The notes beneath the pieces are model-generated. The model did no database searches, was not told the DNA's origin, and saw nothing but the letters and a program-made list of their open reading frames with translations. A program made the translations under genes and the position numbers. Positions 15,568 to 39,904 of a stretch of DNA of 64,000 nt are shown one piece after another. Within the stretch, counting starts at the first letter, position 1; each line of letters starts with the position of its first letter. This stretch comes from a virus: positions 1 through 64,000 of IMG/VR virus record IMGVR_UViG_3300025121_000038. One strand, written 5' to 3'.

Positions 15568-16827
15568 TCAGACGGAAAATTTAGTAGGAGCGAAACAGGA
15601 CAACATCTCTCGAAGGCTGTATTGTGTAGTGGGTCCGATAGCGATTGATTTGTTCTTATTATAGAACTCCATAAAGCTACTTACCACTTTGTTGAATTTG
15701 AATGCCTGAACATAGTTGGAGATTGTTTGTCTAAGATCTGTTAAGTCTAGTTCAACGAATCCTTCCTTAGAAGTCCATTCGTCAAATCTCTTAAAAAATC
15801 TTCGAATACCAACAATGTTGTTGTCGTTCCAGTCACCTCCATCAAAATAGTGGCCAAGGAACATAAGATAAAATCTAAGTTCGTCTGGATCATAGTCATC
15901 TGGGTTAACTACATTACCTTTGGATTTAGACATCTTCTCACCTTTGTAGGTGATCATACCTTGATGAATAAGTCTCTTGAAAGGCTCCTCTTCTTTTGCA
16001 ATGCCAAGGTCATACAGAAACATGTTTATAAACCTGGCGTAAATGAGATGCATACAAGCATGCTCATTACCACCTACATACAGGTCTACTTGCTGATATG
16101 CACCCTCAGATAGAAACTCTGTATCGGATCCTGTCAAGTATCTGAGATAATAGAAAGAACTGTCTACAAACGTGTCTAATGTATCCTCTTCACCTTCAAG
16201 AGGTATAGGGCACCCCCACTTACGTTGGCGTGAGACACACCAGTCATTAAGGTTCTCAAGCCAGTGACGCTGTTGCTTCTTGGTCTTTTCTGGGTAATCA
16301 ATCCAATCTAGATTTTTGATCAAACGGTCTTTGTAATCTGTGATCCTGAAGAACCATTGATTAAGCTCTCTACTCTCTATAATAGTAGAACAGCGCTCGC
16401 ATCGATCGTCTTTGACCTGTTCATTAGCAATAACAGTATTACACGATGGACAGAAATTAACTGGAGAGAATTTCTTGTAAGCTAGACCTTTCTCATGAAG
16501 TTTCAAGAACAGCCATTGAGTCCACTTATAATAAGACGGGTCTGAAGTTACAACTCTCTCTTCATATTGGGTATTCAGTCTAGTCATCTGTCTACGAAAA
16601 TTGTCTATATTCTCGTAAGTGACTTCTCTTGGGTCTCTGTTATGTTTAATCGCATAGTTCTCGGCCGGGAGGCCAAAAGCGTCATACCCAAAAGGTTGGA
16701 ATACTTCTACACCACGATATCTCTGCCATCGACAGTAACTATCCATAATGGCATAGTTATAGCAATGTCCTACATGGAGTCCGTCTCCTGACGGATAAGG
16801 AAACATTACCAGTACATACATAGTCAT
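15568..16827 (-). CDS. leuS: Minimal leucyl-tRNA synthetase (no CP1 editing domain, no C-terminal domain)
   Basis: MFPYPSG.GLHVGH, GYDAFGLPAENYA, DWCVSRQR.WG.PIP, DTLDTFVDSS, GG.EHA..HL.YARF, KMSKSKGN. Confidence 0.92.
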   Translation of the reverse strand: MTMYVLVMFPYPSGDGLHVGHCYNYAIMDSYCRWQRYRGVEVFQPFGYDAFGLPAENYAIKHNRDPREVTYENIDNFRRQMTRLNTQYEERVVTSDPSYYKWTQWLFLKLHEKGLAYKKFSPVNFCPSCNTVIANEQVKDDRCERCSTIIESRELNQWFFRITDYKDRLIKNLDWIDYPEKTKKQQRHWLENLNDWCVSRQRKWGCPIPLEGEEDTLDTFVDSSFYYLRYLTGSDTEFLSEGAYQQVDLYVGGNEHACMHLIYARFINMFLYDLGIAKEEEPFKRLIHQGMITYKGEKMSKSKGNVVNPDDYDPDELRFYLMFLGHYFDGGDWNDNNIVGIRRFFKRFDEWTSKEGFVELDLTDLRQTISNYVQAFKFNKVVSSFMEFYNKNKSIAIGPTTQYSLREMLSCFAPTKFSV

Positions 16828-17339
16828 TCCTCAAGTCGAATAAGCCACGGTTCTATATTTGGAGCCCAAACCTCTGATAGAGGTAAACTAAAGTCATTTG
16901 TTTCTCTATCAATACCGATAGGAACCACTTCGTCATTTACAGTTTGGTACTTTAAATGTAAAATTCCCAAATCTCGAAATAGCAATAAGAGGGTTCGACC
17001 AAGCTCTAATCTTTCTTGACCATCTATATCATTATTGAGACCGACTCCAAAGTCTCTCCAGAAAGACCCCATTTGGTCCAGCATGCTCCAACAAGATTTG
17101 AATACTTTAGGCTTTGCCCAATCTTCTGTGGATCTAATATTTCTAACACAATCTTCAGGCTTTTGAACATCGTACCGTTCTGCAAATCCATCTAAAATTG
17201 CGAGACATTTGTGGACATAATCTCTTTCTGGACTGATTTTGGCTTCTTTATACGGCAGAAGAGTCAAGTAATAGCTGGCTAGAAGGCCTTCAAACTCTTC
17301 ATATCGAAAGTCTGTATTAGGCATACATCCGGAATTCAT
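16824..17339 (-). CDS. Hypothetical protein, translationally coupled to leuS
   Basis: 171-aa ORF with ATGA overlap. Confidence 0.6.
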   Translation of the reverse strand: MNSGCMPNTDFRYEEFEGLLASYYLTLLPYKEAKISPERDYVHKCLAILDGFAERYDVQKPEDCVRNIRSTEDWAKPKVFKSCWSMLDQMGSFWRDFGVGLNNDIDGQERLELGRTLLLLFRDLGILHLKYQTVNDEVVPIGIDRETNDFSLPLSEVWAPNIEPWLIRLEE

Positions 17340-17629
17340 AGGTCCCTCTTACTCATAGATTACAGAAATAAATTTGACGTTATCATTTCTATGAACTTTT
17401 TTCCAAGCTTCTACTGCTTTGTAATGTTGATTTTTGTCTTCAAAACAATAACGTTCAAAGCGTTGTTCCCAATATCTATCCTCTTTCTGGAACCAGAACT
17501 TTACTACATAAGATTCCGACAATATGGGAGTATGTGTTTTATGTGTATGTTTCCGTTTCATACAATCTCTTATTCTGGTTTTTATATTAAGATATGACGA
17601 TAAAAGGATGGGATAAGTAAGAAACGAAA

Positions 17630-18007
17630 TTAAGTAAGAAGAGACCATTCACAAGGTATGACATTAAGATTGTAATCAATCCTGATAGGACGTATTAGGT
17701 CTCCATCATCCATTTCATTAGCAAGAGATCCGCAACCCCAAGCCTCTCCTGGTTTATCTCGTTTATAATAAACCATAGAGAGGAAATCATCCAATCGAGT
17801 CTCTATAAAAAACTGACCGTGACGAACGGATGGGGTTAATTTCATTAAGGAGGTAAATTCTTGTATTGGACCGAGACTTGTATATTCTTCTGATCCTTCG
17901 TCCCATTCAACTTTGGAATATACTTGCCAGTAATGAGGCCATTCGAGGTCTTCTACGTCAGGGAGAGTAGGTCTAAAAAAAGACATATCCATAAATATTG
18001 AACACAA
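17630..18007 (-). CDS. Hypothetical protein
   Basis: Acidic 125-aa ORF. Confidence 0.5.
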   Translation of the reverse strand: MCSIFMDMSFFRPTLPDVEDLEWPHYWQVYSKVEWDEGSEEYTSLGPIQEFTSLMKLTPSVRHGQFFIETRLDDFLSMVYYKRDKPGEAWGCGSLANEMDDGDLIRPIRIDYNLNVIPCEWSLLT

Positions 18008-18031
18008 AATATAGGATTATAAAAGGGAAGA

Positions 18032-18330
18032 GAAGTCAGGGGAGTTTGCAAGACTCCCAACATCCAACTTAGTAGAATATTTCAGTCACTCATATCAGAT
18101 TATATGTTTGCGCAAACATATAATCGTCATTTATGAGGAGAGCCTTTACCCTCAATGCAGCCGACCCATAGCCTAGTAACGACTGCATATCCGACCCGAT
18201 ATAACTGCTCTCATTAGCCTCGTACAATCGGTCTATCGGTACTTTATTCACCCAAGCCATCCGCACCCCTCTTTAAGAGCGAGAGGGTACATTTCCTCCG
18301 GAGTCAGAGGAACATTCTGTCACTGACTTC
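18032..18330 (-). ncRNA. Candidate structured ncRNA (about 300 nt) downstream of tRNA-Pro
   Basis: Closed by GAAGTCAG/CTGACTTC; internal hairpins and a 28-bp perfect palindrome; no ORF of 60 aa or more. Confidence 0.55.
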
Positions 18331-18334
18331 TCCA

Positions 18335-18412
18335 TGGTATGAGTGAGAGGAGTCGAACCTCCATGATGTCCTGTTTCCAAAACAGGCGACTTAGCCATTA
18401 GTCCACACCCAT
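18335..18412 (-). tRNA. tRNA-Pro(TGG)
   Basis: CCTGT-TTTGGAA-ACAGG arm, TTCGACT T-loop, CCA. Confidence 0.9.
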
Positions 18413-18489
18413 TGGTCGAGGCGAAAGGAATTGAACCTTCATGATGTCCTGCTTCCGACGCAGGCGACTTACCATTAGTCCACGCCTCG
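18413..18489 (-). tRNA. tRNA-Pro(CGG)
   Basis: CCTGC-GTCGGAA-GCAGG arm, CCA. Confidence 0.9.
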
Positions 18490-18509
18490 ATTTTTAGATA
18501 CTTAAAACA

Positions 18510-18585
18510 TGGTGGAGCTGGTCAGGGTCGAACTGACATCCTCTTGATTGCAGGTCAAGTGCTCACCCAATTGAGCTACAGCCCC
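18510..18585 (-). tRNA. tRNA-Ala(TGC)
   Basis: G3:U70, CTTGA-CCTGCAA-TCAAG, CCA. Confidence 0.9.
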
Positions 18586-18929
18586 AATTTATCAATACAT
18601 CACATACTCTTTAGTAGGGTCACCATTTGGGCGTCTACGTCCACTTTGGGGGTTACGCATCCATCCATCAGGCTCTCCTACCCCATCCCATGCTTCAAAA
18701 ACTGCGACCGCAGTCGAATATTCGTCGTATCACCAACTATCATCATAAAACATCTCGGAGCCTATGGCTATACGACCCCTTCCAAAAGTCAAAGGAAATA
18801 CAGATAAAACTTTCCCTGTAGTCAAAACTTTTTGTTTAACAGACATATAAGATCCATTGGTAAGGTCTTCAATAAATACTTATCCGTATAAACAAAGATC
18901 AGGTCAAAAAGTGCGAATGGAATATCTAA

Positions 18930-19454
18930 TCAGGCTAGAAAAATCTGAGCTATCTTGCGAAAATCTGAAAATGACATATGAACATCTTTGATGTCTGGTC
19001 CAGTCTTCTGTAATAGAGTAATTCTGTCGTCTTTTATCAATAAATCTAACGTGTTTGTAAGTTTAGTCTTATGACCTTTCTTCAATAAAGTAGCCACAGA
19101 GTCTAACTCTTGTTCTAATTTTGTTTTCTCTCCAATCAAAGATTCAGATAAAGCTAATGTTTTCATAAGATCCGAGAGTTCGAAATCTTCTATCTCTTCT
19201 GGTAAAAGAACTTTTAATTTGTCATTTATGGGTGTAGATGGAAATGCTACTTTAACAGGTGCTGTAAGATCGCCCTGAGTATATTTAAGTCGTTTACAAT
19301 TGTGGCGCTTTATAGTTTTAGAGTCCCACTCTACCGTTACACCATATGTATCAATACCTATCACCACACCTACAGCCCCCAGAGGGATACCGTATCTTCT
19401 CACAGAATCATTTAAAAGAACAAAATCACCAATCTTGAATTTGTGTATAGGCAT
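18930..19454 (-). CDS. Hypothetical protein, paralog of 7792..8310
   Basis: Shared motifs; GGAG RBS. Confidence 0.65.
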   Translation of the reverse strand: MPIHKFKIGDFVLLNDSVRRYGIPLGAVGVVIGIDTYGVTVEWDSKTIKRHNCKRLKYTQGDLTAPVKVAFPSTPINDKLKVLLPEEIEDFELSDLMKTLALSESLIGEKTKLEQELDSVATLLKKGHKTKLTNTLDLLIKDDRITLLQKTGPDIKDVHMSFSDFRKIAQIFLA

Positions 19455-19471
19455 CTAAAGACTCCGAAGTG

Positions 19472-19699
19472 TTAATTGCGATCGGGAACTAACTCATGAA
19501 CTATACCACGCCACCCACATGCACATACAGCTCTGTTGTTGTCTACTGCTGTCTGTAGATCTGTAAATATGACACCTTTACAAGTAGTTTCCACATCTTG
19601 AGACCCACATGTTGGACAACACCTATGTATATTGTGATATTGGGTATAAACAGACTCTCTAACAGTCGGCTCTGGTATTGAAGATATTAGTATAATCAT
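19472..19699 (-). CDS. Small Zn-ribbon protein whose ATG abuts a tRNA CCA
   Basis: CPTCGS...CACG; sequence reads CCA-ATG. Confidence 0.55.
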   Translation of the reverse strand: MIILISSIPEPTVRESVYTQYHNIHRCCPTCGSQDVETTCKGVIFTDLQTAVDNNRAVCACGWRGIVHELVPDRN

Positions 19700-19773
19700 T
19701 GGAGCGGAATAAGGAAATTGAATCCTTAACTACGGCTTGGGAAGACGTCGTGTTACCCTTACACTAATCCCGC
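19700..19773 (-). tRNA. tRNA-Gly(CCC)
   Basis: GCGGGAT/ATTCCGC-T-CCA, TTCCCAA loop. Confidence 0.85.
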
Positions 19774-19829
19774 ATATACTAGCATACTGAACAATATGAA
19801 GGTAAGCAAAATTTGAGATTTAGTCTAAA

Positions 19830-20090
19830 TTAATTTGACGGACCACATTCTAGTTCGTAGTCTATAATGGCTTGTTGTATTCTGGTGAGATTAACGAAAG
19901 AAATTCTACCCATTTGTTCAGAGGATAAAAAAGCAAAAGCTGTGTTAGCAAAACTAGGGGAGATATGTGTTACACACGTAAAATCTAAAATAATACTTTG
20001 GGATCCAGACAGGAACTTTTCTCTAAAGGTCTTACCGCCGTCTCTGCCCGACAGTCTAGATTTAAACTCAGAGGCAATGTCTATAAGCAA
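19830..20090 (-). CDS. STAS-like (DUF4325-type) protein
   Basis: L..R..G...R ... IILDF..V..ISPSFA..AF. Confidence 0.65.
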   Translation of the reverse strand: MLIDIASEFKSRLSGRDGGKTFREKFLSGSQSIILDFTCVTHISPSFANTAFAFLSSEQMGRISFVNLTRIQQAIIDYELECGPSN

Positions 20091-20373
20091 TTGTACACTC
20101 CACTTGTTGAGGGGTTAGAGAGCCTATACCTTTCCATCTTGCGGAATTGTCTTCAATTTCTATTAAACCGGAGTCTCTATACGAAGATAAAGTGTCGTAT
20201 AGTAGGTCTCCTAAAGTGTTGTTGGTCCAAAAGATATGTTTATTATCTCGAAACTCTTGAAATTTATCTTCCGAAGAACTAACACCTTGGAAAATACCTA
20301 GAGTAACTCCTAAATAATAAGCAGCTACATCAAGATCTGTCCAATCCGTAAGATATTCTTTAAGTCTTTTCAT
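20068..20373 (-). CDS. Hypothetical protein
   Basis: 101-aa ORF with ATGA overlap. Confidence 0.55.
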   Translation of the reverse strand: MKRLKEYLTDWTDLDVAAYYLGVTLGIFQGVSSSEDKFQEFRDNKHIFWTNNTLGDLLYDTLSSYRDSGLIEIEDNSARWKGIGSLTPQQVECTIAYRHCL

Positions 20374-20777
20374 AATTTTGAACTCAAAACAAAGACCATT
20401 GTGGTCCCCTCTATAGCCGTGATGTCAACTATTCTCAAAATCTCTTGAGTGTTATCCATAAACTCTACATTCAAAGATTTAACAAACATCGCCTTTTCAA
20501 AAGTATGCTCAAGATGAGTTTTACACCCTAGGTACCACCATGCGTTTGGGTGTTTCTCATCGTTCTCACTCAAAGTTATGTCATCAGAGTTTGTTTTTAG
20601 CAAAACTCGTTTAAGGATATATTTGTCGGGTACCTTTATATCCTCTCTTGCTTCTGCTTCTTCTATATCTATACCTAGAAGGACTTCCATTCTAGAATAT
20701 AAGTCATCCATAGAGATGAACATTTTCTTATTTAACGCGTCATGAAATTCTGGATCGTTGTATCTAGGTATATTCAT
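20370..20777 (-). CDS. Hypothetical protein
   Basis: 135-aa ORF with ATGA overlaps. Confidence 0.55.
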   Translation of the reverse strand: MNIPRYNDPEFHDALNKKMFISMDDLYSRMEVLLGIDIEEAEAREDIKVPDKYILKRVLLKTNSDDITLSENDEKHPNAWWYLGCKTHLEHTFEKAMFVKSLNVEFMDNTQEILRIVDITAIEGTTMVFVLSSKL

Positions 20778-21244
20778 GAATCAAACCTTATATCAAACAT
20801 CTGTCTATGACTATATTCTCTATAATCTTGTATAACAAGATCAAATTTGTGATTGTGTACTATGGGAATATCCGACCAAAATACTTTTAAATATGCTGGG
20901 TTTGACCGTGGATAATCACTTGATACTACACATGCCAATTTTTCTGGCAGATCCTCACACAAATGCCCTTTAACAAAACCAGCAGAAGAAAATATATTCC
21001 ATCCTTCATATAAAAGCTCTTCAAAAGAGAATTTCTTGATACCAGAGTAGGAATTTCTAACCTGGATAGAAGCAGCTTTAGACAAATGGATAGTTTGTGG
21101 AGCTATATTAGAATAGACGACATATATGGTCTATGACAAAAGGCGTACACCGGGTAACATAACACGCATCAACAGGTAGAGTAATTATGGTTTTAGAATT
21201 TCTATGAATCCAAGGACCTATATTAGAAAAATTACTTCCACAAT

Positions 21245-21598
21245 TCATGGAATTGGTACTCTAGAATCACCCCAACCACCGTGTTCTAAGCCACCCAATA
21301 AGGGTTTTACGGGCCTGCCTAGTTCTATTAGAACCTTTTCTATTTCTTTATATGCTCTATTTCTATTTGGAAGTACTTTCTCAGGTACAGGTAGAGTTAT
21401 AGTCAAAATACCTATCAACACACTAAGGTTGTCTTTAAGGTCAAAGGCATGGTCCGCGAAGATACCACATAAATCATCAGAAATTTTGAACTCCCCTTTC
21501 CGGTGTAAGTCATCTAACTCACCGAACATTATATCCAGAGCACCCTCTATTAGGGGTTCTGCAAGTATTTTGTTATAAAGTTCTTGAGCTTCTGTCAT
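21245..21598 (-). CDS. Hypothetical protein
   Basis: 117-aa ORF. Confidence 0.55.
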   Translation of the reverse strand: MTEAQELYNKILAEPLIEGALDIMFGELDDLHRKGEFKISDDLCGIFADHAFDLKDNLSVLIGILTITLPVPEKVLPNRNRAYKEIEKVLIELGRPVKPLLGGLEHGGWGDSRVPIP

Positions 21599-21657
21599 AA
21601 TTTATTCTAAGATTGATATATTATTAGATAACACTATTCAAAATGGATTAGTGTAGA

Positions 21658-21698
21658 ACAAAGAAGGGGATTAGAATTATTCTAATCCCCTTCTTTGT
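21658..21698. terminator. 20-bp perfect inverted repeat, probable terminator
   Basis: ACAAAGAAGGGGATTAGAAT-T-ATTCTAATCCCCTTCTTTGT. Confidence 0.7.
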
Positions 21699-21699
21699 G

Positions 21700-22160
21700 A
21701 TGAAGTTGCCTGTTCCCATCTCGATCGGCTTTTTGCCAACTTACATGTTAGTAAGTGTAATCAACCTCATCAGACCTTCTGCGTGTCCTAGCACTGGTTT
21801 TATCCAGTTGCAGAATTGCTCTTCCATAATCTGGCACTTAGCAGGCTTATCTATCAGATTGAGCTAGGCTCTCGAAGTCCTAGCACCGAAAGTGCTCCCA
21901 TGCTCTTGTGTGGCACGAAAGGTATCAGTTAAGGTATAGGATGAGTTACTCCGTCGGACATTTCTTAGGAAACATACACGGTTAAAATCCGCAGTAAACC
22001 TAAGCCGTCTTCCCAACCAGTTTTACTCTCAAACTTCTTTTCACAGAAATTTCGCAGTCCTATACTACGGCTTTGACAAGCAGCCCGTCTTTTCCAGGAG
22101 CAACCCTGGTTCTCATCGTGAGTTGTAACGGCTCTCACTAGCTGGAAGCTAACCAGCACG
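21700..22160 (-). ncRNA. Candidate large structured ncRNA (about 460 nt) between tRNA-Met and a terminator
   Basis: GC-richer than flanks, many short hairpins (GCTGGTTAGCTTCCAGC, CCAGGGTTGCTCCTGG, AGCACTTTCGGTGCT), no convincing ORF. Confidence 0.55.
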
Positions 22161-22161
22161 T

Positions 22162-22240
22162 TGGTAGCGGGGGCTGGATTTGAACACAGCGATCTTTTGG
22201 TTATGAGCCAAATGAGATGACCAAGCTTCTCTACCCCGCT
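22162..22240 (-). tRNA. tRNA-Met(CAT)
   Basis: TTTGG-CTCATAA-CCAAA arm, AGCGGGG/CCCCGCT-A-CCA. Confidence 0.85.
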
Positions 22241-22246
22241 ATATGA

Positions 22247-22328
22247 TTTTCTGAAAGGGATTCGAACCCCTAAGTCTTTCGACCGGACCTTTTATGGGCC
22301 CTTTGTTTACCAATTTCATCATCAGAAA
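22247..22328 (-). tRNA. Atypical tRNA-Leu-like (TAA, A33), no CCA
   Basis: AAATTGGTAAA D-loop, GGGCC-CATAAAA-GGTCC, GTCGAAAGAC variable arm, TTCGAAT. Confidence 0.55.
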
Positions 22329-22332
22329 ATTG

Positions 22333-22418
22333 CGCCTTGGAGAGGGGTTTTAACCCTCACGCCACGTCTGGCAGAGTATTTATAGTACTCCACGTCTGTC
22401 TTTTCCGTCATCCAAGAC
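22333..22418 (-). tRNA. Atypical class II tRNA-like gene with ATA anticodon
   Basis: GTCTTGGA/TCCAAGGC stem, GAGTA-CTATAAA-TACTC, long variable arm, degenerate D and T loops. Confidence 0.45.
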
Positions 22419-22541
22419 TAAAGCCCGCATTTTGTTGGGTGCCAGCCCTTCTCCATGCACTATATAACTGGCATATATAGTGAGTTCAAGCCACTTACCA
22501 TGTGTGCATGGTAGTAATACTATCTACCTCAGGCTCTTTTT

Positions 22542-22644
22542 ATACTCAAGGAAGGGTTCGAACCTTCAACCTAACAAGTGTATTGTTAGGTGCCTTAATG
22601 ACTAAAGCCATTAATTGATATGTTTTACAACATTTCTTGAGTAT
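22542..22644 (-). ncRNA. tRNA-like RNA with 9-bp acceptor stem and long arms
   Basis: ATACTCAAG/CTTGAGTAT, GAAGG-TTCGAAC-CCTTC T-arm, three internal hairpins. Confidence 0.55.
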
Positions 22645-22732
22645 GTATCAAGTATCAGAGACCAGGGTCAGTCCACCACTGGAACGTCTGAACTAGGAAT
22701 AGAATGAAGTCCATTTGTGTATCCTTTCTGTG

Positions 22733-22951
22733 TTAGTTGTTTAGCTTTTGAAGCTCGCTCTCAGCCCAGTTTTTGAGGCTAGTCCAGTGTCTACACTGCT
22801 CGTCCAGACTATATTCTGAAGGGCCTTCTTCAGATCCGAAAGTATCTTGGCCCAAGTTACAATGGGTCAAACTACTATTTGCAGTAGTAAGCATATGCTC
22901 AAACTCAGTACGACGACTTTCGGTAGATTCTGGTTCACGAGAGCTAAACAT
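22733..22951 (-). CDS. Hypothetical protein
   Basis: 72-aa ORF, AAGG RBS, promoter motif at 23006. Confidence 0.5.
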   Translation of the reverse strand: MFSSREPESTESRRTEFEHMLTTANSSLTHCNLGQDTFGSEEGPSEYSLDEQCRHWTSLKNWAESELQKLNN

Positions 22952-23026
22952 GGGTTTTACCTTTTGTTAATATTGATGTATTTAGTCTTCTTGCAACATA
23001 TATACAACGATATAATCAAATCAAAA

Positions 23027-24047
23027 TTAAGAGCGTTTCTTAAGTTTTCTATAATCTAAACCGTAATCAAAAGCCCATTTTCTGATCGCATTATCTGAAA
23101 CACCGTATTTTAACCCAAGTGCGGGTATAGTATTAAATTTTATATCTTGTTCGAGTACTTTTTGATGGTCTTCCACATCTTCTACGACTTTTTGAAAAAC
23201 ATTCTTGAGAACATGTTTTCATAGTGGGTCTTACTTTTAAGACCTGTTTTCCACAAATACATACAAAATATATTTTAGGTTTCAAGTCAACATCTTTCTT
23301 TTCTTGAAGAGATTTTGCTTGAAAAGCATCATATATTATATCGAATTTTTCTGAACATAAATCTTGGAATTCTTCTATGTTTTGAGTATTACTCAATTGA
23401 GTAAGTTGTTTGTACCTAACAAACAAGAGTTTTATATCATTAGATGATAATATCCTTTGTAATTTGTCTAAATCATACGCGGAGAAAAATCCCTTTACTT
23501 CTACATACAAATCATAATTAGGCAAATAAAAATCGGGAGCATATGTTTTTAATACATCGCTTGATGAAAGGTACTTTAGGTATACTTTTCTAATCCATAA
23601 TATACCTTTAGAGTTAAACCATTCTGCTACTTTTACTTCCCAGGTTCCTCTACATACATATTCTTCTCCTTGTATGTTTTTAATAGTGTACCACTTCACA
23701 TCTTTAAATCCACCTCCACCTTTTTCTTCCAAAAATTTAGATCTTGCTGCGGATATTTTCTCTTTAGCTTCTTTCGACATTATCTTTGTAGGTTGTAGTT
23801 TAGCTTTTTCTGATCTTTTAGCTTTAATAGAAGCAAGATTGGGGTTTAGAGAGCATTTTAAAGTATGTGCCCCCAACCGGACCCAGTCAAAAGATTGATG
23901 GCAAAATTTACACGAATAAATATTCGAAAGCTGTGCTAGAAATACTTCTCTATGAATGGTTTTGGATTTTTGTGAGTGAGAATTATTATGGCCGCCTAAT
24001 TGGGCCACCGTATCAAAAGTTTTATCGCATTTTGAACATTTATACAT
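23027..24047 (-). CDS. Zn-finger plus PD-(D/E)XK endonuclease with a frameshifted C-terminal HTH
   Basis: C2H2 finger, YAPDFYLP...VEVKG; after the A5 run at 23159-23163 the +1 frame gives ...LGLKYGVSDNAIRKW...KRS*. Confidence 0.75.
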
Positions 24048-31056: not shown

Positions 31057-31254
31057 AAAACCTTTTAAAATTACTTCAAACCTGAAATTGTGCTACTCCC
31101 CAATTATGTTGAGGTCACCTAATTTTCATGTTTGATACACCTCAAGGTCTCAAACACTAGATGGTTTCGTTATCCATCTCCATATTTGCCTTCATGTTCT
31201 CCAAAACACATCTCACATATCATTTTTTACCTTTAATTTCTTCCAAATCTTTAG

Positions 31255-31338
31255 TGGCTGTGGAGAGACTCGAACTCTCACATCCTTTCGGACCCTGGTT
31301 CTGAGCCAGGTGCGTCATACCAATTGCGCTACACAGCC
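31255..31338 (-). tRNA. tRNA-Leu(CAG), long variable arm
   Basis: CCTGG-CTCAGAA-CCAGG, GTCCGAAAGGAT arm, A73; ends CTA. Confidence 0.9.
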
Positions 31339-31722: not shown

Positions 31723-31725
31723 ATA

Positions 31726-32235: not shown

Positions 32236-32425
32236 ATTGCGGACACCGTGAAAACGATGTCTGAACTCCTTGTACACATGGTACATGAGCTAAAGCTTAT
32301 TATCAATCACTAATAGAAGCCATCTGTCAAGGTTTTCACAATTGAATAGATTTAGATCCTATTAGCTGAGCTAGTTGCATCCCTTATGTCCCTTAATGGG
32401 ACTCTGGTTAGCAAATAATAAGCTA

Positions 32426-32512
32426 TGGTAGCTGTGGTCGGATTCGAACCGACACGTCCATTACAGACACGGATTTTGAGTCCGCTTCGTCATGCCAATT
32501 GCGTACACAGCC
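32426..32512 (-). tRNA. tRNA-Leu(CAA), long variable arm
   Basis: GCGGA-CTCAAAA-TCCGT, long arm, ACCA. Confidence 0.88.
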
Positions 32513-32710
32513 ACAAAATTAATTGTCGAGTTTACCTTTACATCAAATCCGGTGCCACCGTAGGTTTCCCGGTTTGGTACTGGAACCACAAGAGGATTGG
32601 TTACCCCTACTTTTTCGGCTTAGTGCCTATGCCTCTAGTTGGGCTATGTGGTTTAAAATGAGGTGCAAGTTGTTAACATTTTATTCTGTCCATACACCTG
32701 TGTTTTAATA

Positions 32711-32790
32711 TGGTGGAGCACCTGGGATTTGAACCCAGCTAAATATCCGAATTGCAAGTCCGGCGACCACCCCTAGCAGTCTCGTGCCCC
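32711..32790 (-). tRNA. tRNA-Ala(TGC)
   Basis: G3:U70, CCGGA-CTTGCAA-TTCGG, CCA. Confidence 0.88.
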
Positions 32791-32812
32791 ATAAATATGT
32801 TTCTACCAAAAC

Positions 32813-32889
32813 TGGTGGCCGTGAGAAGATTTGAACTTCCACTGAACAGGCTCTCAACCTGCTTCCTCTGCCAGTTGGGATACACGGCC
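32813..32889 (-). tRNA. tRNA-Leu(GAG), short variable loop
   Basis: GCAGG-TTGAGAG-CCTGT, 5-nt variable loop TCAGT, ACCA. Confidence 0.88.
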
Positions 32890-32942
32890 AATTTGAGTGT
32901 GATGTTCACACTCGTTTCTATATTCAATTGTCAAAGATCTAA

Positions 32943-32965
32943 TGGGGTGCTATGAGAGAGTTGAA
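32943..32965 (-). repeat. Displaced tRNA-His 3' end with CCA; 21-bp direct repeat of 33650..33670
   Basis: gggtgctatgagagagttgaa is identical at both sites. Confidence 0.92.
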
Positions 32966-32996
32966 AACTAATTTTCTCTTTATAACTTACCCATTT

Positions 32997-33710
32997 ATGA
33001 TAAAAAAATTTACATATGACCAATATAACCAAGCTAAAAGTCTAGATAATCTATTACTAGAATGTCTATTTTGTAAACAAGATTTTCTATGTACAAAACG
33101 AAATATTAAGCATGCATTACTCAACTCAACAAAAGACAAACGAAAATTCTGTACATTAAAATGTAGCAAAGAATATTTAAAGTCACTAAACTTCATTATT
33201 TGTTCTTATTGTAACAATAAATCACATAGACAAAAAGCTCTTATAAATGTTGGCAATAATTTTTGTACTCAATCATGTGCGGCAAAATACAATAATGCAC
33301 ATAAAACAAAAGGTACTAGAAGATCCAAACTTGAACAATGGTTAGAAATAAAATTACTTGAACTTTATCCAGACTTAGAATTTCACTTCAATAAAACAGA
33401 TGCTATAAATGCTGAGCTTGACATATACATACCAAGTCTTAAACTGGCTTTTGAGCTAAATGGTATCTTTCATTATGAACCAATCTATGGTCAAGATAAA
33501 TTAGATAAAATTCAATCTAATGATCACAGAAAATTTCAAGCATGTATAGAACATGACATATCCCTTTGTATTATTGATACATCAAATCAACTTTATTTCA
33601 AAGAACAAACATCTAAAAAATATTTAGACATTATAACTAATATAATTGAGGGTGCTATGAGAGAGTTGAACTCTCGTATTCGGATCCACAAACCGACGTT
33701 CTACCGTTGA
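32997..33710 (+). CDS. Free-standing Zn-finger plus Vsr/DUF559-like endonuclease inserted at the tRNA-His T-loop
   Basis: Start MIKKFT parallels MIKLFT of 14508; near-identical nuclease half; C-terminus reads antisense through tRNA-His. Confidence 0.8.
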   Translation: MIKKFTYDQYNQAKSLDNLLLECLFCKQDFLCTKRNIKHALLNSTKDKRKFCTLKCSKEYLKSLNFIICSYCNNKSHRQKALINVGNNFCTQSCAAKYNNAHKTKGTRRSKLEQWLEIKLLELYPDLEFHFNKTDAINAELDIYIPSLKLAFELNGIFHYEPIYGQDKLDKIQSNDHRKFQACIEHDISLCIIDTSNQLYFKEQTSKKYLDIITNIIEGAMRELNSRIRIHKPTFYR

Positions 33711-33722
33711 ACTAATAACACC
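33651..33722 (-). tRNA. tRNA-His(GTG)
   Basis: G-1:C73, TTGTGGA loop; CCA not encoded. Confidence 0.9.
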
Positions 33723-33946
33723 ATAATTTAGAACTGATATTAACAATTACCTTGAGTTGTTAATACCTATAGCAGAGTCTAGAACTTAAGATCTGCCTCG
33801 TAGTGTTCACACCATACCATTTTTATTGGTAGAGAGGTGTCGTCCACATCTCTTTTCAGAAATGCACTCCCCTAAGTATAGGATGCAGAGTGTCAAGGGT
33901 TTCGCATCCTTAGTGTTGAAGTCAGTAGTTCCGTACCGTATCAACT

Positions 33947-34022
33947 TGGTGCCCCTCCCCGAATTCGAATCGGGACTTTACAGATTTTAAGTCTGTTGCC
34001 TCTGCCGTTGGGCTAGAAGGGC
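33947..34022 (-). tRNA. tRNA-Leu(TAA), short variable loop
   Basis: ACAGA-CTTAAAA-TCTGT, 5-nt variable loop AAAGT, ACCA. Confidence 0.88.
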
Positions 34023-34099
34023 ATATTGTCTTGCTTACTCATTATACAACATACAGGCTTATAAGTGCGAATGGTCTATAAACTTATTCAGCCTATTTT

Positions 34100-34134
34100 T
34101 GGTGGTCCTGGAGAGTATCGATCTCTCGCTACTG
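34100..34134 (-). pseudogene. Displaced 3' third of a tRNA-Glu-type gene
   Basis: CAG-TAGC-GAGAG-ATCGATA-CTCTC-CAGGACC-A-CCA; the ORF stop lies within it. Confidence 0.8.
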
Positions 34135-34818
34135 ATAATGTATCCATTTATATATCTTCTTAGACTTTATAAGAGTCACAGTACTTCTAGACACTCCGTA
34201 TTCAAAAGCTAATTCTTTATGTAATTTATCAGTATGATATATCTCTAATGCTTGTTCTTTCGTTAATTTTAAAGGTTTGCCATCTAGACCATGAGTCCAA
34301 ACATCCCCTTTTTCTGACATAATTCTATTCGTATTATACAATCCAAAACAAGACTTTGAACAAAAAGGTAGTACATTATATTTGACATCTCTAGAAAAAA
34401 TCTTTTGACAATATGTACATTTAAACTCATGTTTAGGTTTAAAATTATCATATAAAATGTGATAATTTTTTGTTCCAAATTTATTCTTTACATAATCGAA
34501 AGCGAACTGTAAATCTTTTTCACGCAAAACTATTACTGTAAAACCATGATGTTCTGCTACTTTAGTTTTTGCTTCTACCTTCGAAGGAAGTTCATACCCT
34601 TTTATTTCTATTATGGTTTTATAGTCATCAAGTAAAAAATCAGGGACATACTTCAACCCATTATTTTCTAATATGCCAGAAAATCTTGTAAAGTTAATAT
34701 TATGGTCTAAAGCATATACTACCCAACATAATTCATATGTTGACCCACAATAAATACCTTTATAATAACCATGTTTTGATCTTCCAGATCCTTTTCTATA
34801 CCCACCAATTTGTTTCAT
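34129..34818 (-). CDS. PD-(D/E)XK endonuclease with Zn-ribbon and HTH
   Basis: STYE...YVPDF...IIEIKG; CTYC..FCSKSC; LAFEYGVSRSTV; ATG abuts a tRNA CCA. Confidence 0.82.
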   Translation of the reverse strand: MKQIGGYRKGSGRSKHGYYKGIYCGSTYELCWVVYALDHNINFTRFSGILENNGLKYVPDFLLDDYKTIIEIKGYELPSKVEAKTKVAEHHGFTVIVLREKDLQFAFDYVKNKFGTKNYHILYDNFKPKHEFKCTYCQKIFSRDVKYNVLPFCSKSCFGLYNTNRIMSEKGDVWTHGLDGKPLKLTKEQALEIYHTDKLHKELAFEYGVSRSTVTLIKSKKIYKWIHYQ

Positions 34819-34892
34819 TGGTGCTCTCGGAGGGTGTCGATCCCTCGTTACCAGATTGAAAGCCTAGCGTTCTACTGTTGAACTACGAGAGA
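34819..34892 (-). tRNA. tRNA-Glu(TTC)
   Basis: CTAGG-CTTTCAA-TCTGG, ATCGACA T-loop, ACCA; 1:72 mismatch. Confidence 0.82.
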
Positions 34893-34907
34893 AAACTTTC
34901 AAAAAAC

Positions 34908-35012
34908 TAGTGAGTACGGGAGGAATCGAACCTCATTGCACCCTTGCCATCTGTAGGAATCGAACCTACAATTACAGACGTCTCTGTAGTCACCTGACTT
35001 TCATACTCACTA
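34908..35012 (-). ncRNA. tRNA-mimic RNA with two T-arms
   Basis: TAGTGAGTATG/CGTACTCACTA stem; TGTAGG-TTCGATT-CCTACA and GAGG-TTCGATT-CCTC. Confidence 0.65.
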
Positions 35013-35055
35013 AAAATGGTGGCGTTTAATGGATGCTACACGCCAAAGTCTAATC

Positions 35056-35179
35056 ATGAACATTAAGGATTCGAACCTCAGTCTCTGAAGAGCGATAAAG
35101 GCCTCCGATGGCTTCGGGATTCGAACCCTCTTTATCGACTTATAACATCAGTGCTCTCCCGTTGAGCTATTTTGTTCAT
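35056..35179 (-). ncRNA. tRNA-like RNA with a second T-arm domain nested in the anticodon arm
   Basis: D-arm GCTC-AACGGGA-GAGC, two GGTTCGAATCC loops, internal CGATAAAG/CTTTATCG stem. Confidence 0.65.
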
Positions 35180-35189
35180 TTTAAAACGC

Positions 35190-35930
35190 CCCTGCATTGT
35201 TTCAACATAGTTTCTCTCGGGTCAAGAGCTATGCTATGTGTAGATAAAACAATGCTGCATCCAACCCTGCTCTCTGTCAGTCCGGTTTCTCGTGGGTCAC
35301 AAGCTATGCCGGGTTTTACAACAATGAGCTAATACCTACTTAATAAACTCTACTGAGTGGGTTTCAACAAATGACCCTTTATGTATTTTAATACATAAAG
35401 TAGTAAAAGTTGGCCTTGTTAGGGCTCATTTACTCTACACAAATGTTTCTACCTCGTCTAACCTATTATACTACAGTTACATAACTGTAGTATACTCTAA
35501 AATATATAACATATAATAACAAAATATAAGATAAATTTGGAGGAAGTTGGTCTTATGAGGACGCGTCCTCCGTTTTTTATTAGTTGCTAACTCTTCTAAA
35601 TCTCTACAATGGGTTAGCATTCATTGTAGCGGAAGCATTACTTTCAACAAGCCCTCAGTCACTGTTACACCTTTTACAGTGTCCATCAACGCGTCCTAAA
35701 ACGCTCAGACGTACTTTATCAGTACCGTTTTAAGGGCTCTCCAGTTTTTCTTCCGTCGCTCACAAGTGCTTGTCTTTTCCCCGCGTTACTTTGCATTTCT
35801 CGCGATTATTTAAGTCAAAACACTAATTTGCTTTTTTGCCCTTTGGAAGTGGATAATGGCTCGACCCTTTCAGGTATTAGCAACTGGGTCCATTATGCCG
35901 CTTTTGTTCCGCTCTTTACTTCCATCGTTC
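35190..35930 (-). ncRNA. Long ORF-poor structured region, candidate ncRNA(s)
   Basis: About 740 nt with no minus-strand ORF of 60 aa or more, several perfect hairpins, promoter motif at 35941. Confidence 0.45.
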
Positions 35931-35999
35931 ATATAATACTAACGAACTACTATCAAAGTTAATCAGAGAGATTCTAAATTATTTTAAAATTATCCAAAA

Positions 36000-36290
36000 T
36001 CATTCAGACAAATTCTTGAACCCAGGTAAAAATCGAACCCCCACCGTCGCAACAATAGAAGGTCTCCATACCATGCCACATTTTTGACATGCATGAGTAT
36101 GATGTGCTTTTGTTTCAAACTCACCCGTATCTATATGTCTTTCGCCACATGAAGGACACCATAGCAACATCGGTATAGGCCTGGACAATACAAAGACTGC
36201 CTCTGTAAGGTCTTTTAAAGTAAACAGTACAGGGGCAGTCTTAATAGTTTCTACGCCCTCAATTATCTTGCGCAGATAGTCCTGGTTCAT
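36000..36290 (-). CDS. Zn-binding hypothetical protein coupled to tuf
   Basis: [16 protein letters not shown]; ATGA overlap. Confidence 0.6.
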
Positions 36291-37480
36291 ACATTACCAA
36301 TATTAGTGATCACCCCAGCCCCAATGGTACGACTACCTTCTCTAACCGCGAAGCGAGAGTTCACCTCAAAGCCAGCTGGTTTATTCAGTTCAACCTTGAT
36401 AGTAGTACGGTCACCTGGGTTGACACACTCTAACCCTTCTGGAAGAGTGATTACCCCAGTAACATCTGTAGTACCGAAATAGAATTGAGGTCTATACCCA
36501 CTCTTGAATGGTTTCTCACGACCCCCTTCTTTTGCGGTCAAGGTATAAAACTCAGCCTCGAATTTTGCATTGCTTCTAATAGACCCAGGAGCGGCCAAAA
36601 CTTGACCTCTCCGTATCTCGTCTCTCTTAACCCCACGGAGCAACATACCGATGTTCATACCAGCAAGACCTTCCGGTACATCTTTACGGAACATCTGGAC
36701 TCCTGTAACGACTACCTTTCTGGGTTTGCCACCCTCGTCTTCGGTAAGACCTACTATCTCAACCTCGTCTCCGATCTTGACCTTACCACGGTCAATACGG
36801 CCTGTAGCTACCGTACCACGCCCAGATATTGTAACAACGTCTTCTACCGACATTCGGAACGGAGAGTCCATATCTCTAACAGGCTCTGGAATAGTATTGT
36901 CCAAAGCATCCATCAATTCTGGGATGGATCCGATCCAAGGGCTAGTCCAGTCTCCTGCATTAGCCGCTTCAAGAGCCTTAAGAGCGGATCCTCTCACGAA
37001 CTTGACATCAGTATACCCATAGCTCTCGAGGATTTCGTTTGCTTCCATTTCTACGAGAGACAAGAGCTCTTCGTCTTCACAACGATCAACTTTGTTCACG
37101 AAAACAACGATATGCTTTACCCCTACTTGAGATGCAAGCAATACGTGTTCCTTGGTTTGGGGCTCAGGTCCTTGAGATCCATCGACCAAAAGTATAGCAC
37201 CGTCCATCTGAGCAGCACCCGTGATCATGTTCTTGATGTAGTCAGCATGTCCTGGACAGTCAATATGTGCATAATGTCTGTTCTTTGTTACATACTCTAC
37301 GTGAGCGGTATTGATTGTAATACCACGAGCTTTTTCTTCAGGAGCTTTATCTATTTGATCATAGTTAAGGGCTTGCCCACCATGTTCTTTAGCCTGTATC
37401 TTTGTGATAGCTGCCGTAAGAGTGGTTTTACCATGGTCGATGTGACCTATACTTCCGACTGTTAACATTACTCTACCCAT
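36287..37480 (-). CDS. tuf: Translation elongation factor Tu
   Basis: [53 protein letters not shown]; GGAG RBS before the ATG at 37480. Confidence 0.97.
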
Positions 37481-37581
37481 CTTTTTCTCCAAATTTAATT
37501 TACCACAGAACAACTAACGGATAATAACAATATTCCTTTTATGAAGTACTTCATCGAACCTAAAATTCATGGAGACTTCAT

Positions 37582-38499
37582 TTGCCAAATAACATTTCTA
37601 CACGCACTAGGATTTGTCCAAATTGTCAAAACTCATATCTCTTAAATGTGACTATTGACGGAGAACGAATAGCCCTCCACAAACGTAAATATTGCTTAGA
37701 TTGTTCTCCTTTTATCAAAGGTAGCAACAAAATAAGTAACCGAAAGACCTTAGAAAAACACAACAAGTCTGAATCTTTTTGCAAAGAATGTAACTCAATA
37801 AAACCTATAGATCAATTCTATTTTAGGCACAGTGGACTACCCTTGTCTATCTGTAAAAAATGTCATCACGAAGAATCTAAACAACAAACTAAATCTTATA
37901 AGGAGCAGGCAGTCGCTTATAAAGGCGGATCCTGCGAGCTTTGTAATTATAGCAAATGTTTAGATGCAATGGACTTTCATCACAAAGACCCTACTCAAAA
38001 AGATTTCACTTTTAGTAGAAGATTTCCATGTTTCAAAACAGCTAAACCAGAACTCGATAAATGTATGCTCTTATGTGCCAACTGTCACCGCGAAGAACAT
38101 CAGCGTATGGCAGACATAGATTTTAAAAATTCTGACCACGGGCAGCTTGACCCATTAGGCCATAGATGTCGTAGATGCAACCTACATAAAACTATAAATT
38201 CTTTCCCTATAGATAAAGGAATACCAAAACCTTGGTGTAAGTCATGTACTCGTTTATATGGTAGACAAGGTAGAGCAAAAATCAAACAAGAAATTATCTC
38301 CTATAAAGGAGGGGTTTGTGAAATATGCTCCTATAACAAAAACATTGCTGCATTAGATTTACATCACAAAGACCCAACTCAAAAATCTTTTGGCATTGCC
38401 GAAATGAGAGATAAATATCTCTCTGAAATCAAAGATGAGGTAGATAAGTGCATTTTAACCTGTGTAAACTGCCATAGAGAACAACACGTTAAACCTTAA
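37582..38499 (+). CDS. Double-HNH endonuclease inserted into the 5' end of tuf
   Basis: Two YKGG.C..C.Y...HHKDPTQK.F...DKC.L.C.NCHRE.H units; same family as 25304..26155. Confidence 0.85.
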   Translation: MPNNISTRTRICPNCQNSYLLNVTIDGERIALHKRKYCLDCSPFIKGSNKISNRKTLEKHNKSESFCKECNSIKPIDQFYFRHSGLPLSICKKCHHEESKQQTKSYKEQAVAYKGGSCELCNYSKCLDAMDFHHKDPTQKDFTFSRRFPCFKTAKPELDKCMLLCANCHREEHQRMADIDFKNSDHGQLDPLGHRCRRCNLHKTINSFPIDKGIPKPWCKSCTRLYGRQGRAKIKQEIISYKGGVCEICSYNKNIAALDLHHKDPTQKSFGIAEMRDKYLSEIKDEVDKCILTCVNCHREQHVKP

Positions 38500-38542
38500 T
38501 CTCCACGTGTCCTACCGTCCCTGTGTTAACATGAGTCTTCAT
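38489..38542 (-). pseudogene. tuf: Displaced original N-terminus of EF-Tu (MKTHVNTGTVGHVE...)
   Basis: AAGGA RBS then ATG AAG ACT CAT GTT AAC ACA GGG ACG GTA GGA CAC GTG GA, matching the EF-Tu HVNxGTxGHVD motif. Confidence 0.85.
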
Positions 38543-38569
38543 AAGGTCCTTTCTAGGTTTTTTGATTAT

Positions 38570-38630
38570 GCAAACATTTGGATTCGAACCCTTGACCTAT
38601 TTAGTCATCATACCTATCTCATATGTCTGC
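38570..38630 (-). ncRNA. Mini tRNA-like RNA (T-loop plus closing stem)
   Basis: GCAGACAT/ATGTTTGC stem with GG-TTCGAAT-CC; starts right after a CCA. Confidence 0.45.
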
Positions 38631-38709
38631 TGGTGCCGGAAGTGGGGTTCGAACCCACACTGTCCACCTTCTGAAGATGGCGACTCCTTGCCAATTGGTC
38701 TATTCCGGC
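38631..38709 (-). tRNA. tRNA-Leu(CAG), short variable loop
   Basis: CCATC-TTCAGAA-GGTGG, 5-nt variable loop ACAGT, ACCA. Confidence 0.88.
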
Positions 38710-38715
38710 ATATAT

Positions 38716-39176
38716 TTATTCTACTGTCGTAACATAAGTACGAACAATACGTTCATATCTCTCAAGCCTTACTAACTTTATTCTGATATTATTTTTCTCC
38801 CCAAATTCGACAGCTCGTTGTTTCAACAATTGTAACACTCTTTGATTTCTTAGAGTAAAGTCTCCTTCATCTTCTGTATCTGAGCTAAAAAGATTGCTAC
38901 ATCTTTGCAACCTTCTCCAGTTATAGTACAAACAACAGACCCGTATTCACTATACACATAATCGAGTTCAAATATGGGATCATACTCTTTAGATTCTGGA
39001 AAATGCTTATGCCAGAATTTCTTGGCATCCTTTGCATATTTCTCACATTTCCCATGGTAGTGTTCGCCAACATAACCAGTAAGATATGAGGTCATATCTC
39101 GTTCGAAATTACCAGCATAACTGTCCGTCTCTATGATCAATGCCTGTGATATTTGTTTTGCAAAATTTGATACCAT
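38716..39176 (-). CDS. Hypothetical protein, possibly frameshifted across two overlapping ORFs
   Basis: ORFs 38850..39176 (GGAGG RBS) and 38716..38931 overlap by 82 nt in different frames. Confidence 0.45.
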
Positions 39177-39344
39177 TTAATCCTCCATCAGATCATACCA
39201 GGAAACAATAGGCTGAGCAAAAGCTTTCAAGTTAGACATGTACGTATCTAACTGACCTTTCAATCTAATTCTTTCTTCATCTTCCAATCCAAACTGGATT
39301 GCGTCTTCTAATGAGTCATGTTCACTAGAAGATCCATTCTCTTG

Positions 39345-39539
39345 TCAGCCCCATCCAGTATAATCACAACCAGCTCTGACTACACCATATTTGCCATTCT
39401 GAAGACAAAATAGACCTATCCAATTAGGTCCATCATTATCTCCATCTTCTTGAGCTATAGACTCAATGACGTCTTCTCTTGAAAAAGAAGCATATTTGAA
39501 AACTTCTGCCCAATCGGAATCGTCAATATCTAATATCAT
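39345..39539 (-). CDS. Hypothetical protein
   Basis: GGAGG RBS directly after a tRNA CCA. Confidence 0.6.
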   Translation of the reverse strand: MILDIDDSDWAEVFKYASFSREDVIESIAQEDGDNDGPNWIGLFCLQNGKYGVVRAGCDYTGWG

Positions 39540-39548
39540 AAATCCTCC

Positions 39549-39625
39549 TGGTGCCTCTCCTCAGATTTGAACTGAGACTGTGTAGATTTTGAGTCTACTG
39601 ACTCTAACCGTTGGTCTAGAGAGGC
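39549..39625 (-). tRNA. tRNA-Leu(CAA), short variable loop
   Basis: GTAGA-CTCAAAA-TCTAC, 5-nt variable loop ACAGT, ACCA. Confidence 0.88.
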
Positions 39626-39821
39626 TTTTAAGGGAATAGGTTATCACCCTTTATGCACGAATCAACCTAGACGTGCTTTCAGAAATTGATTGATCGGAAC
39701 CAATTTCCACAATGTCCCTCGTTCTATCCGATCCTGAGTATTAAACTACATCCGCAACTATGGGCATAATGCCGTGTCTCAAACCGGATGCCAGGATTTC
39801 ATACCTGGATTAAGGGCCTAA

Positions 39822-39904
39822 TGCGAGAGGTGGGATTCGAACCCACACGATCTTTCGATCGCCAGCCCCTCAAGCTGGTGCGGCTACCATTACGCCACTC
39901 TCGC
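39822..39904 (-). tRNA. tRNA-Leu(GAG), long variable arm
   Basis: CCAGC-TTGAGGG-GCTGG, CGATCGAAAGATCG arm, A73; no CCA. Confidence 0.9.

Follow-up and report, generated by a model that had tools for sequence, protein, structure and literature searches.

The nearest described counterpart of the enzyme discussed here is the leucyl-tRNA synthetase (LeuRS) of Mycoplasma mobile (3ZIU), a cellular, bacterial-type protein of 637 amino acids (aa) that is the sole LeuRS of its organism, has by nature neither a CP1 editing domain nor a leucine-specific domain, and is reported to be active and to mischarge (PMC3643597). On the tRNA side the closest known case is the type I tRNA-Leu(CAA) of Streptomyces coelicolor, which has a variable loop of 5 nucleotides (nt) and coexists with long-arm isoacceptors; its leucylation was shown and needs U8-A14, and a single full-length LeuRS is reported to charge tRNA-Leu of type I as well as of type II, the leucine-specific domain enabling the charging of type I (Fan et al. 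2019, PMC6614811). Here we analyse a stretch of 64,000 nt of viral DNA (positions 1 to 64,000 of IMG/VR record IMGVR_UViG_3300025121_000038; the whole stretch is called the window below), which makes up the opening 64 kb of a viral contig of 81 kb and which carries both a 419-aa LeuRS gene, mini-leuS, and four tRNA-Leu genes with short variable arms. A sequence-only reading of the window had joined the two into a possible phage-private leucylation system. On balance we favour another view: the short-arm tRNAs would be ordinary type I members served by a normal LeuRS, mini-LeuRS would be a clade-specific auxiliary tied to tRNA-Leu generally, and the window would thus hold two separate features of the translation-takeover module of a huge groundwater phage.

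The product of mini-leuS has HVGH, KMSKS and the ZN1 cysteines; QRHW is followed by the five residues LENLN and then by DWCVSRQR, and the protein finishes with ...CFAPTKFSV, about 7 residues past FAP. It matches PF00133 and PF09334 in Pfam, and its best NCBIfam match, by far the highest-scoring family, is TIGR00396 leuS_bact (408.8 bits). The domain losses were mapped by phmmer alignment to the Thermus LeuRS 1h3n, in pieces. Residues 3-191 of mini-LeuRS correspond to Thermus 35-225 and residues 191-210 to Thermus 417-436; CP1 (Thermus 226-416) is missing, because residue 191 joins Thermus 225 and 417. The following pieces, 206-293 against 487-578 and 294-350 against 633-693, skip the second Zn region (437-486) and the leucine-specific domain (579-632), respectively, and the last one (367-391 against 730-754) lies within the helical anticodon-binding domain, with no phmmer match of mini-LeuRS to the C-terminal domain of 1h3n. 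The length of the enzyme, the short QRHW-DWCVSRQR junction and the loss of CP1, all noticed in the sequence-only reading, are therefore confirmed by the ORF (open reading frame) and the Thermus alignment, and the other three losses that it listed (second Zn region, leucine-specific insert, C-terminal domain) by the alignment and the relatives of the protein.

The AlphaFold2 model of mini-LeuRS (pLDDT 89.5, pTM 0.89) and the searches of solved structures lead back to the M. mobile enzyme, the best solved relative (3ziu; E-value 1e-89; Foldseek TM score 0.90 on the query, 35% identity). In both proteins the leucine-specific domain is replaced by a linker of four residues, GKDG in M. mobile and YKGE in mini-LeuRS. 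The M. mobile enzyme, however, has the second Zn region, the full anticodon-binding domain and the C-terminal elbow domain, whereas the viral, auxiliary mini-LeuRS is without all three. Human mitochondrial LeuRS is comparable in another respect: it is reported to charge mt-tRNA-Leu(UUR), which has no long arm, with identity resting on A73 and A14 (PMC9976931), but it possesses the domain set of E. coli LeuRS (PMC6614811) and not a stripped core.

The C-terminal domain is kept in the CP1-less relatives P0132 and P0165 (45-49% identity), and the window protein, P0128 and P0129 all end before it. We considered whether such a domain could be supplied in trans or by read-through. The stop codon of mini-leuS is TGA, relatives terminate there with TAA, TAG or TGA, the 88 in-frame codons past the TGA have no counterpart in relatives (best E-value 0.18), and a tblastn search of 17 related loci gave no homologues of the five ORFs that flank mini-leuS. 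Thus a trans-acting or read-through C-terminal domain is unsupported, since no flanking gene is conserved and the post-TGA codons are not conserved either. The homologue in genome G001 (L002 11267-11446) has an extra charged C-terminal tail of 59 aa, absent from the rest of the family, which by eye looks of low complexity and unlike the LeuRS C-terminal domain. Leucine makes up 31 of the 419 residues of mini-LeuRS (7.4%; 9.5% in the other ORFs, 4.0-9.6% across the family). The gene avoids TTA, which accounts for 2 of its 31 leucine codons versus 250 of 762 in the other window ORFs, and CTT accounts for 12 of the 31.

Across 33 aligned members of the family H18/G20/H21, K298/M299/K301 and Cys126/129/143/146 are invariant, with a mean column identity of 68%; the catalytic site is shown to be intact and conserved. 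The best 120 clusters at the 90% identity level are 66-100% identical to the query, 119 of them being 410-477 aa long, and occur on contigs of up to 607 kb; clustering at 50% leaves one full-length representative plus fragments. The nearest relatives belong to uncultured huge phages, among them LR745206.1 (634,780 bp; product 69% identical), and 16 IMG/VR contigs of up to 508 kb code for proteins that are 51-75% identical. By these similarities mini-LeuRS is one conserved huge-phage lineage, reduced to the Rossmann core, ZN1 and a short helical bundle. A second, distant lineage was found in the 735-kb phage LR756501.1 (L501 2986-4512; 508 aa, 35% identical, HMGH/KMSKN), where the CP1, leucine-specific and C-terminal domains are absent and the second Zn region is kept. 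One cluster of the family (P0074, 616 aa) carries mini-LeuRS fused to a dephospho-CoA-kinase-like domain (PF01121, PF13238). A phage LeuRS without a C-terminal domain is described in no paper that we found, the supplementary synthetase lists of PMC7162821 being outside that search; in general terms, Al-Shayeb et al. (2020, PMC7162821) suggest that tRNA variants of phages may be substrates of phage synthetases. Of the two features, mini-LeuRS is the one with more novelty.

As for the tRNA genes, the parallel sets described in the sequence-only reading hold up: four genes with a 5-nt variable loop and three long-arm genes pass RF00005 (Table 1), and the shared A73 and NNAGT loop are seen in all four short genes, together with an encoded CCA and a D stem of 3 bp. 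All four carry the leucine identity set, namely A73, U8-A14, A15-U48, G18G19 and A20a in a Leu-type D loop. For E. coli, A73, A15-U48, G18G19 and A20a, and not the variable arm, are reported to determine leucine identity, and armless variants are active (PMC9976931). The anticodons GAG, CAG and CAA are each present in both short- and long-arm form. UUA is the commonest leucine codon of the window ORFs (250/762), and the short-arm UAA gene is the sole sound UAA isoacceptor, because the calls at 22245 and 15155, neither of which was in the sequence-only reading, fail the Rfam threshold. The latter lies directly downstream of mini-leuS and could be either the remnant of a tRNA-Leu(UAA) or a tRNA mimic with a regulatory role. 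Our covariance model R1 was trained on the same short-arm family that it detects, and therefore the final tRNA calls rest on ARAGORN.

The short-arm family was searched for with a D-arm pattern taken from the short-arm alignment, which gave at least 120 viral and at least 120 bacterial stretches; 80 loci of each were examined. Leu anticodons are found in 84 of the 88 pattern-bearing tRNAs of the viral loci, all below 81 nt; of 110 short Leu tRNAs, A73 is present in 104, and the combination of U8 with A14 is likewise present in 104. In bacterial genomes 80 of 81 pattern-bearing tRNAs have a Leu anticodon, mostly in Actinomycetota and usually as a solitary UAA gene (L291-L370); three actinobacterial genomes searched in full yielded the UAA isoacceptor in the short form and the other anticodons in long-armed tRNAs. 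The premise of the sequence-only reading that bacterial tRNA-Leu is class II thus fails, type I being native in Actinomycetota and, as reported for S. coelicolor, charged by a normal LeuRS (PMC6614811).

The same tRNAs are present in 21 cultured-phage records with hosts ranging from Escherichia to Mycobacterium and Prochlorococcus. An annotated tRNA-Leu is given in 19 of the 21; four records were opened, three of which hold a tRNA-Leu of 74-76 nt and the fourth no tRNA annotation. Examples are Felixounavirus, Mycobacterium phage Rey, cyanophage P-RSM6 and Pseudomonas phage vB_PseuGesM_254, whose type I tRNA-Leu share with those of the window a D arm of the TAGCCCAA..AGAGGC type, an NNAGT-like variable loop and A73. 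Unlike the window phage, these phages (83-192 kb) encode no LeuRS, and therefore host enzymes must charge those tRNAs. The window in turn differs from S. coelicolor in that its type I tRNAs are phage-borne and that four anticodons occur in the short form. We found no paper that discusses short-arm tRNA-Leu in phages. This tRNA type is frequent in phages and actinobacteria and has received little discussion.

Other tRNAs were recorded as well. Those for serine are long in 60 of 60 cases and those for tyrosine in 31 of 34. Bacterial tRNA-Tyr is normally long-armed; tRNA-Tyr(GUA) genes of 72-78 nt without the long arm occur at L100 and L108 (IMG/VR) and at L176 504-581 (Mycobacterium phage Rey). 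At three IMG/VR loci (L059, L075, L113) solitary type I tRNA-Leu bodies have an 8-nt loop for which ARAGORN gives the 4-base anticodon 'tcaa', and these tRNAs are candidates for quadruplet or frameshift decoding.

The sequence-only reading went further and suggested that mini-LeuRS, having no elbow-binding C-terminal domain, is specialised for the short-arm set, so that the two form a partly orthogonal, phage-private pair. We regard this as unlikely. From the tRNA side, a LeuRS relative was present in 1 of 78 searchable viral records with the family and in 1 of the 21 whose completeness is 90% or more, that is, LeuRS is missing from 77 of the 78 records and from 20 of the 21 near-complete genomes; the same search recovered 5 of 5 positive controls. 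In G080, a 448-kb genome with terminal repeats that is 100% complete, five short-arm Leu tRNAs occur without a LeuRS. A LeuRS-like gene was seen in 52 phage records, and none of the 21 cultured-phage records with the family, the E. coli Felixounavirus included, belongs to them; the host genera of these phages, taken from the organism names (Bacillus, Mycobacterium, Streptomyces, Escherichia and others), are absent from the LeuRS matches except for Pseudomonas, where the one match (phage Y3) is a different phage from the one with the short-arm tRNA-Leu.

From the enzyme side, short-arm tRNA-Leu was found in 5 of 7 near-complete or whole-record mini-LeuRS genomes, namely LR745206.1 and G003, G085, G063 and G111 (the latter four at least 97% complete), and in several fragments. 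No convincing short-arm tRNA-Leu was found in G001 (482 kb, 100% complete) or in G113 (476 kb, 97%; one doubtful AT-rich call of 74 nt, 50.6 bits), both of which have long-arm Leu tRNAs immediately beside mini-leuS. Every mini-LeuRS record with Leu tRNAs carries long-arm ones, often beside the gene, the only exception being G004 (the record of L011). The gene adjoins Leu tRNA clusters in L002, L003, L004, L007 and L012, as does the gene of the second lineage in L501, and these neighbours are long-arm as often as short-arm. For comparison we used large contigs sampled through a generic Leu D-loop pattern: the enzyme is absent from all 21 control contigs of at least 100 kb, and short-arm tRNA-Leu occurs in at least 5 of them (at least 4 of 13 among those at least 90% complete), a lower bound, because only the 30 best loci entered the short-arm count. 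A short-arm tRNA is included in 10 of 32 arrays with a Leu tRNA. The enrichment of 5/7 over the control is mild, the numbers are small and the mini-LeuRS phages are interrelated.

The co-occurrence of the two traits stands in part: it is visible in the window and in 5 of 7 enzyme-bearing relatives, but it breaks down in 77 of 78 tRNA-family records and in G001 and G113. The co-occurrence and the joint gain and loss expected of an orthogonal pair were not found (1/78; 2/7 enzyme genomes without the tRNA family). By the refutation that the sequence-only reading had set for itself, mini-LeuRS and short-arm tRNA-Leu are separable traits. The domain losses and the parallel tRNA sets, on which the idea of a pair was built, are real, both traits recur in relatives, and some further observations keep the idea alive. 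The second-lineage gene of LR756501.1 adjoins five Leu tRNAs, two short-arm and three long-arm; elbow integrity is reported to matter less for type I than for type II tRNA-Leu in S. coelicolor; E. coli LeuRS and one other Streptomyces LeuRS are reported to fail on the S. coelicolor type I tRNA-Leu(CAA) (PMC6614811 for both); and, besides the mild enrichment, there is the duplication of anticodons in the two forms. On the other hand, the S. coelicolor LeuRS is reported to need its leucine-specific domain for type I (PMC6614811), and mini-LeuRS is without it. The two are probably not a private pair, because short-arm tRNAs are also frequent in phages and actinobacteria without such an enzyme of their own.

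What remains is the function of the enzyme. Mini-LeuRS is, to judge from its sequence, most likely a non-editing auxiliary LeuRS. It would still form Leu-AMP and would pass leucine to any tRNA-Leu present, that is, to the phage long-arm and short-arm species and perhaps to those of the host, working without post-transfer editing; its role would be extra leucylation capacity for a genome with seven or more tRNA-Leu genes and 9.5% Leu codons. The short-arm tRNAs, for their part, would be charged by the normal cellular LeuRS, as they would be in the numerous phages and bacteria without a second enzyme, and the short-arm UAA species would read UUA, the phage's commonest Leu codon. The co-presence of the two in this clade would reflect that both features are frequent in big tRNA arrays, neither needing the other. 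We infer tRNA charging by mini-LeuRS, as well as its choice of tRNA.

Several facts weigh against the view of an auxiliary enzyme beside ordinary type I tRNAs. Deletion of the C-terminal domain is reported to abolish aminoacylation by the Thermus and E. coli LeuRS (PMC3561953), and therefore a natural enzyme without this domain may not charge unaided; a conserved neighbouring partner gene was not found in the tblastn search of the 17 related loci. The TIGR00396 score lies under the curated cut-off of 548.4. The failure of certain LeuRS on the S. coelicolor tRNA means that some host enzymes reject type I, which leaves room for a helper enzyme, the occurrence of the same anticodons (GAG, CAG, CAA) in both forms hints at a functional difference, and short-arm tRNA-Leu is somewhat more frequent with mini-LeuRS than in the controls. 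The chief reservation is that a LeuRS lacking a C-terminal domain may be unable to charge tRNA.

One would argue from this doubt that mini-LeuRS is not a charging enzyme and that it only activates leucine or binds tRNA-Leu, in regulation, in sensing or for another acceptor. The model for such a case is LeuRS-I of the Sulfolobaceae, an additional LeuRS copy whose editing domain is damaged and whose C-terminus is aberrant, and which is reported to bind tRNA-Leu and to make leucyl-adenylate without aminoacylation; it is, however, an archaeal-type full-length paralogue (PMC9437257). The loss of charging in the two truncated bacterial enzymes, the score under the TIGR00396 cut-off and the P0074 fusion to a dephospho-CoA-kinase-like domain fit this explanation. 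Contrastingly, KMSKS and DWCVSRQR are conserved family-wide. The role of KMSKS includes holding the tRNA 3' end, and DWCVSRQR contacts the acceptor end. Moreover, mini-leuS is repeatedly linked to Leu tRNA clusters, and the nearest solved enzyme, which is missing two of the same domains, is reported to be active (PMC3643597). A non-charging role is, in our opinion, a tentative and rather unlikely alternative, and we retain the auxiliary LeuRS as the preferred reading.

It could also be that the short-arm tRNAs with Leu anticodons carry another amino acid and that leucine codons are recoded or ambiguous. Their shape is not textbook for leucine, and the window has a tRNA of the suppressor type (UUA anticodon) as well as a release factor that is truncated. 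Against this, the tRNAs retain the identity elements of leucine (A73, U8-A14, a Leu-type D loop that has G18G19 and A20a, U48; PMC9976931), the same family provides the UAA isoacceptor found in the three whole actinobacterial genomes, and type I tRNA-Leu is reported to be leucylated in vitro (PMC6614811). The frames of the contig are compatible with the standard code, with TAA, TAG and TGA each terminating ORFs; TAA ends 34 ORFs of at least 100 aa despite the tRNA with the UUA anticodon. This explanation is therefore exceedingly improbable. Stop-codon recoding was tried separately and rejected: reading through TAA, TAG or TGA lengthens the frames unspecifically and leaves the longest ORF nearly unchanged, and the standard code was kept.

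A bolder proposal goes further. Mini-LeuRS could be the smallest natural working LeuRS, tuned to type I and able to charge although it has no C-terminal domain, which E. coli and Thermus LeuRS cannot do without, and each isoacceptor could be kept as a short-arm copy beside the long-arm one as an escape from class II-selective host toxins that recognise the long arm. Candidate toxins would be nucleotidyltransferases of the AbiE/MenT type, since the abortive-infection toxin AbiEii is reported as likely to prefer class II long-arm tRNAs, like MenT3 (bioRxiv 10.64898/2026.01.19.700257), and the phage enzyme would keep the escape copies charged where the host LeuRS handles type I poorly, as is reported of the E. 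coli enzyme with the Streptomyces type I tRNA (PMC6614811). We consider this scenario speculative and distinctly improbable, and the auxiliary LeuRS beside ordinary type I tRNAs is the reading with which we proceed.

The genomic setting is that of a translation module around mini-leuS and the tRNA genes. ARAGORN predicts 34 tRNA genes for the window, the count for the whole 81-kb contig being 43, every one on the minus strand, and 28 of the 34 window calls pass the RF00005 gathering score. The window has a GC content of about 37%. The same DNA is present in groundwater metagenome DNA sequencing runs; no RNA run is among the runs that carry it, which is not informative on expression, and no DNA near-identical to the window was found in the phages collection. 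Other genes of this module are listed in Table 1; in Mycobacterium phage Rey RtcB likewise adjoins the tRNA array. Two further genes were noted: a 1480-aa protein (45487-49929, minus strand) whose sole Pfam match is a C-terminal PARP catalytic domain (E-value 5.8e-17), and a separate CoaE/cytidylyltransferase-like gene at 55234-56397.

Table 1. Positions in the window of mini-leuS, the tRNA-Leu genes and neighbouring translation genes
Feature	Position	Strand	Evidence or context
mini-leuS, 419-aa LeuRS: catalytic core, ZN1 and helical anticodon-binding stub	15568..16827	-	ORF, alignment, model
Type I (short-arm) tRNA-Leu(GAG), 77 nt, A73, CCA encoded	32813..32889	-	RF00005 48.9 bits
Type I tRNA-Leu(UAA), 76 nt, only Rfam-passing UAA isoacceptor in the window	33947..34022	-	RF00005 57.2 bits
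Type I tRNA-Leu(CAG), 79 nt	38631..38709	-	RF00005 49.8 bits
Type I tRNA-Leu(CAA), 77 nt	39549..39625	-	RF00005 53.1 bits
Type II (long-arm) tRNA-Leu(CAG), 85 nt	31254..31338	-	RF00005 55.4 bits
Type II tRNA-Leu(CAA), 87 nt	32426..32512	-	RF00005 38.3 bits
Type II tRNA-Leu(GAG), 85 nt	39821..39905	-	RF00005 54.1 bits
Doubtful AT-rich long-arm Leu(UAA)-like tRNA	22245..22329	-	ARAGORN only, under Rfam threshold; R1 37.7 bits
Leu-like long-arm tRNA, A73, Leu-type D arm, 6-nt anticodon loop	15155..15233	-	ARAGORN only; R1 38.2 bits
RtcB tRNA ligase, interrupted by an intein with HNH endonuclease	4827..7220	-	context
EF-Tu, full three-domain (GTP_EFTU plus domains 2 and 3)	36287..37513	-	mid tRNA array, between short-arm tRNA-Leu genes
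Release-factor fragment, 231 aa (PCRF and RF-1)	50149..50844	-	context
tRNA with UUA anticodon (would read UAA stop)	62628..62702	-	RF00005 57.2 bits

With the editing, leucine-specific and C-terminal domains all missing, a conserved natural LeuRS of about 420 aa would mark a new minimum of what charging tRNA requires of a LeuRS. If active, mini-LeuRS would put to the test the current opinion that bacterial-type enzymes cannot do without the C-terminal domain, and it would offer a compact scaffold for engineering. Short-arm tRNA-Leu, in turn, does not mark a private system; phages and actinobacteria commonly carry it, and therefore its presence in other phage genomes should not be taken as evidence of orthogonality or recoding. 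Phages often keep both arm forms of the same isoacceptor, and the reason for this is testable.

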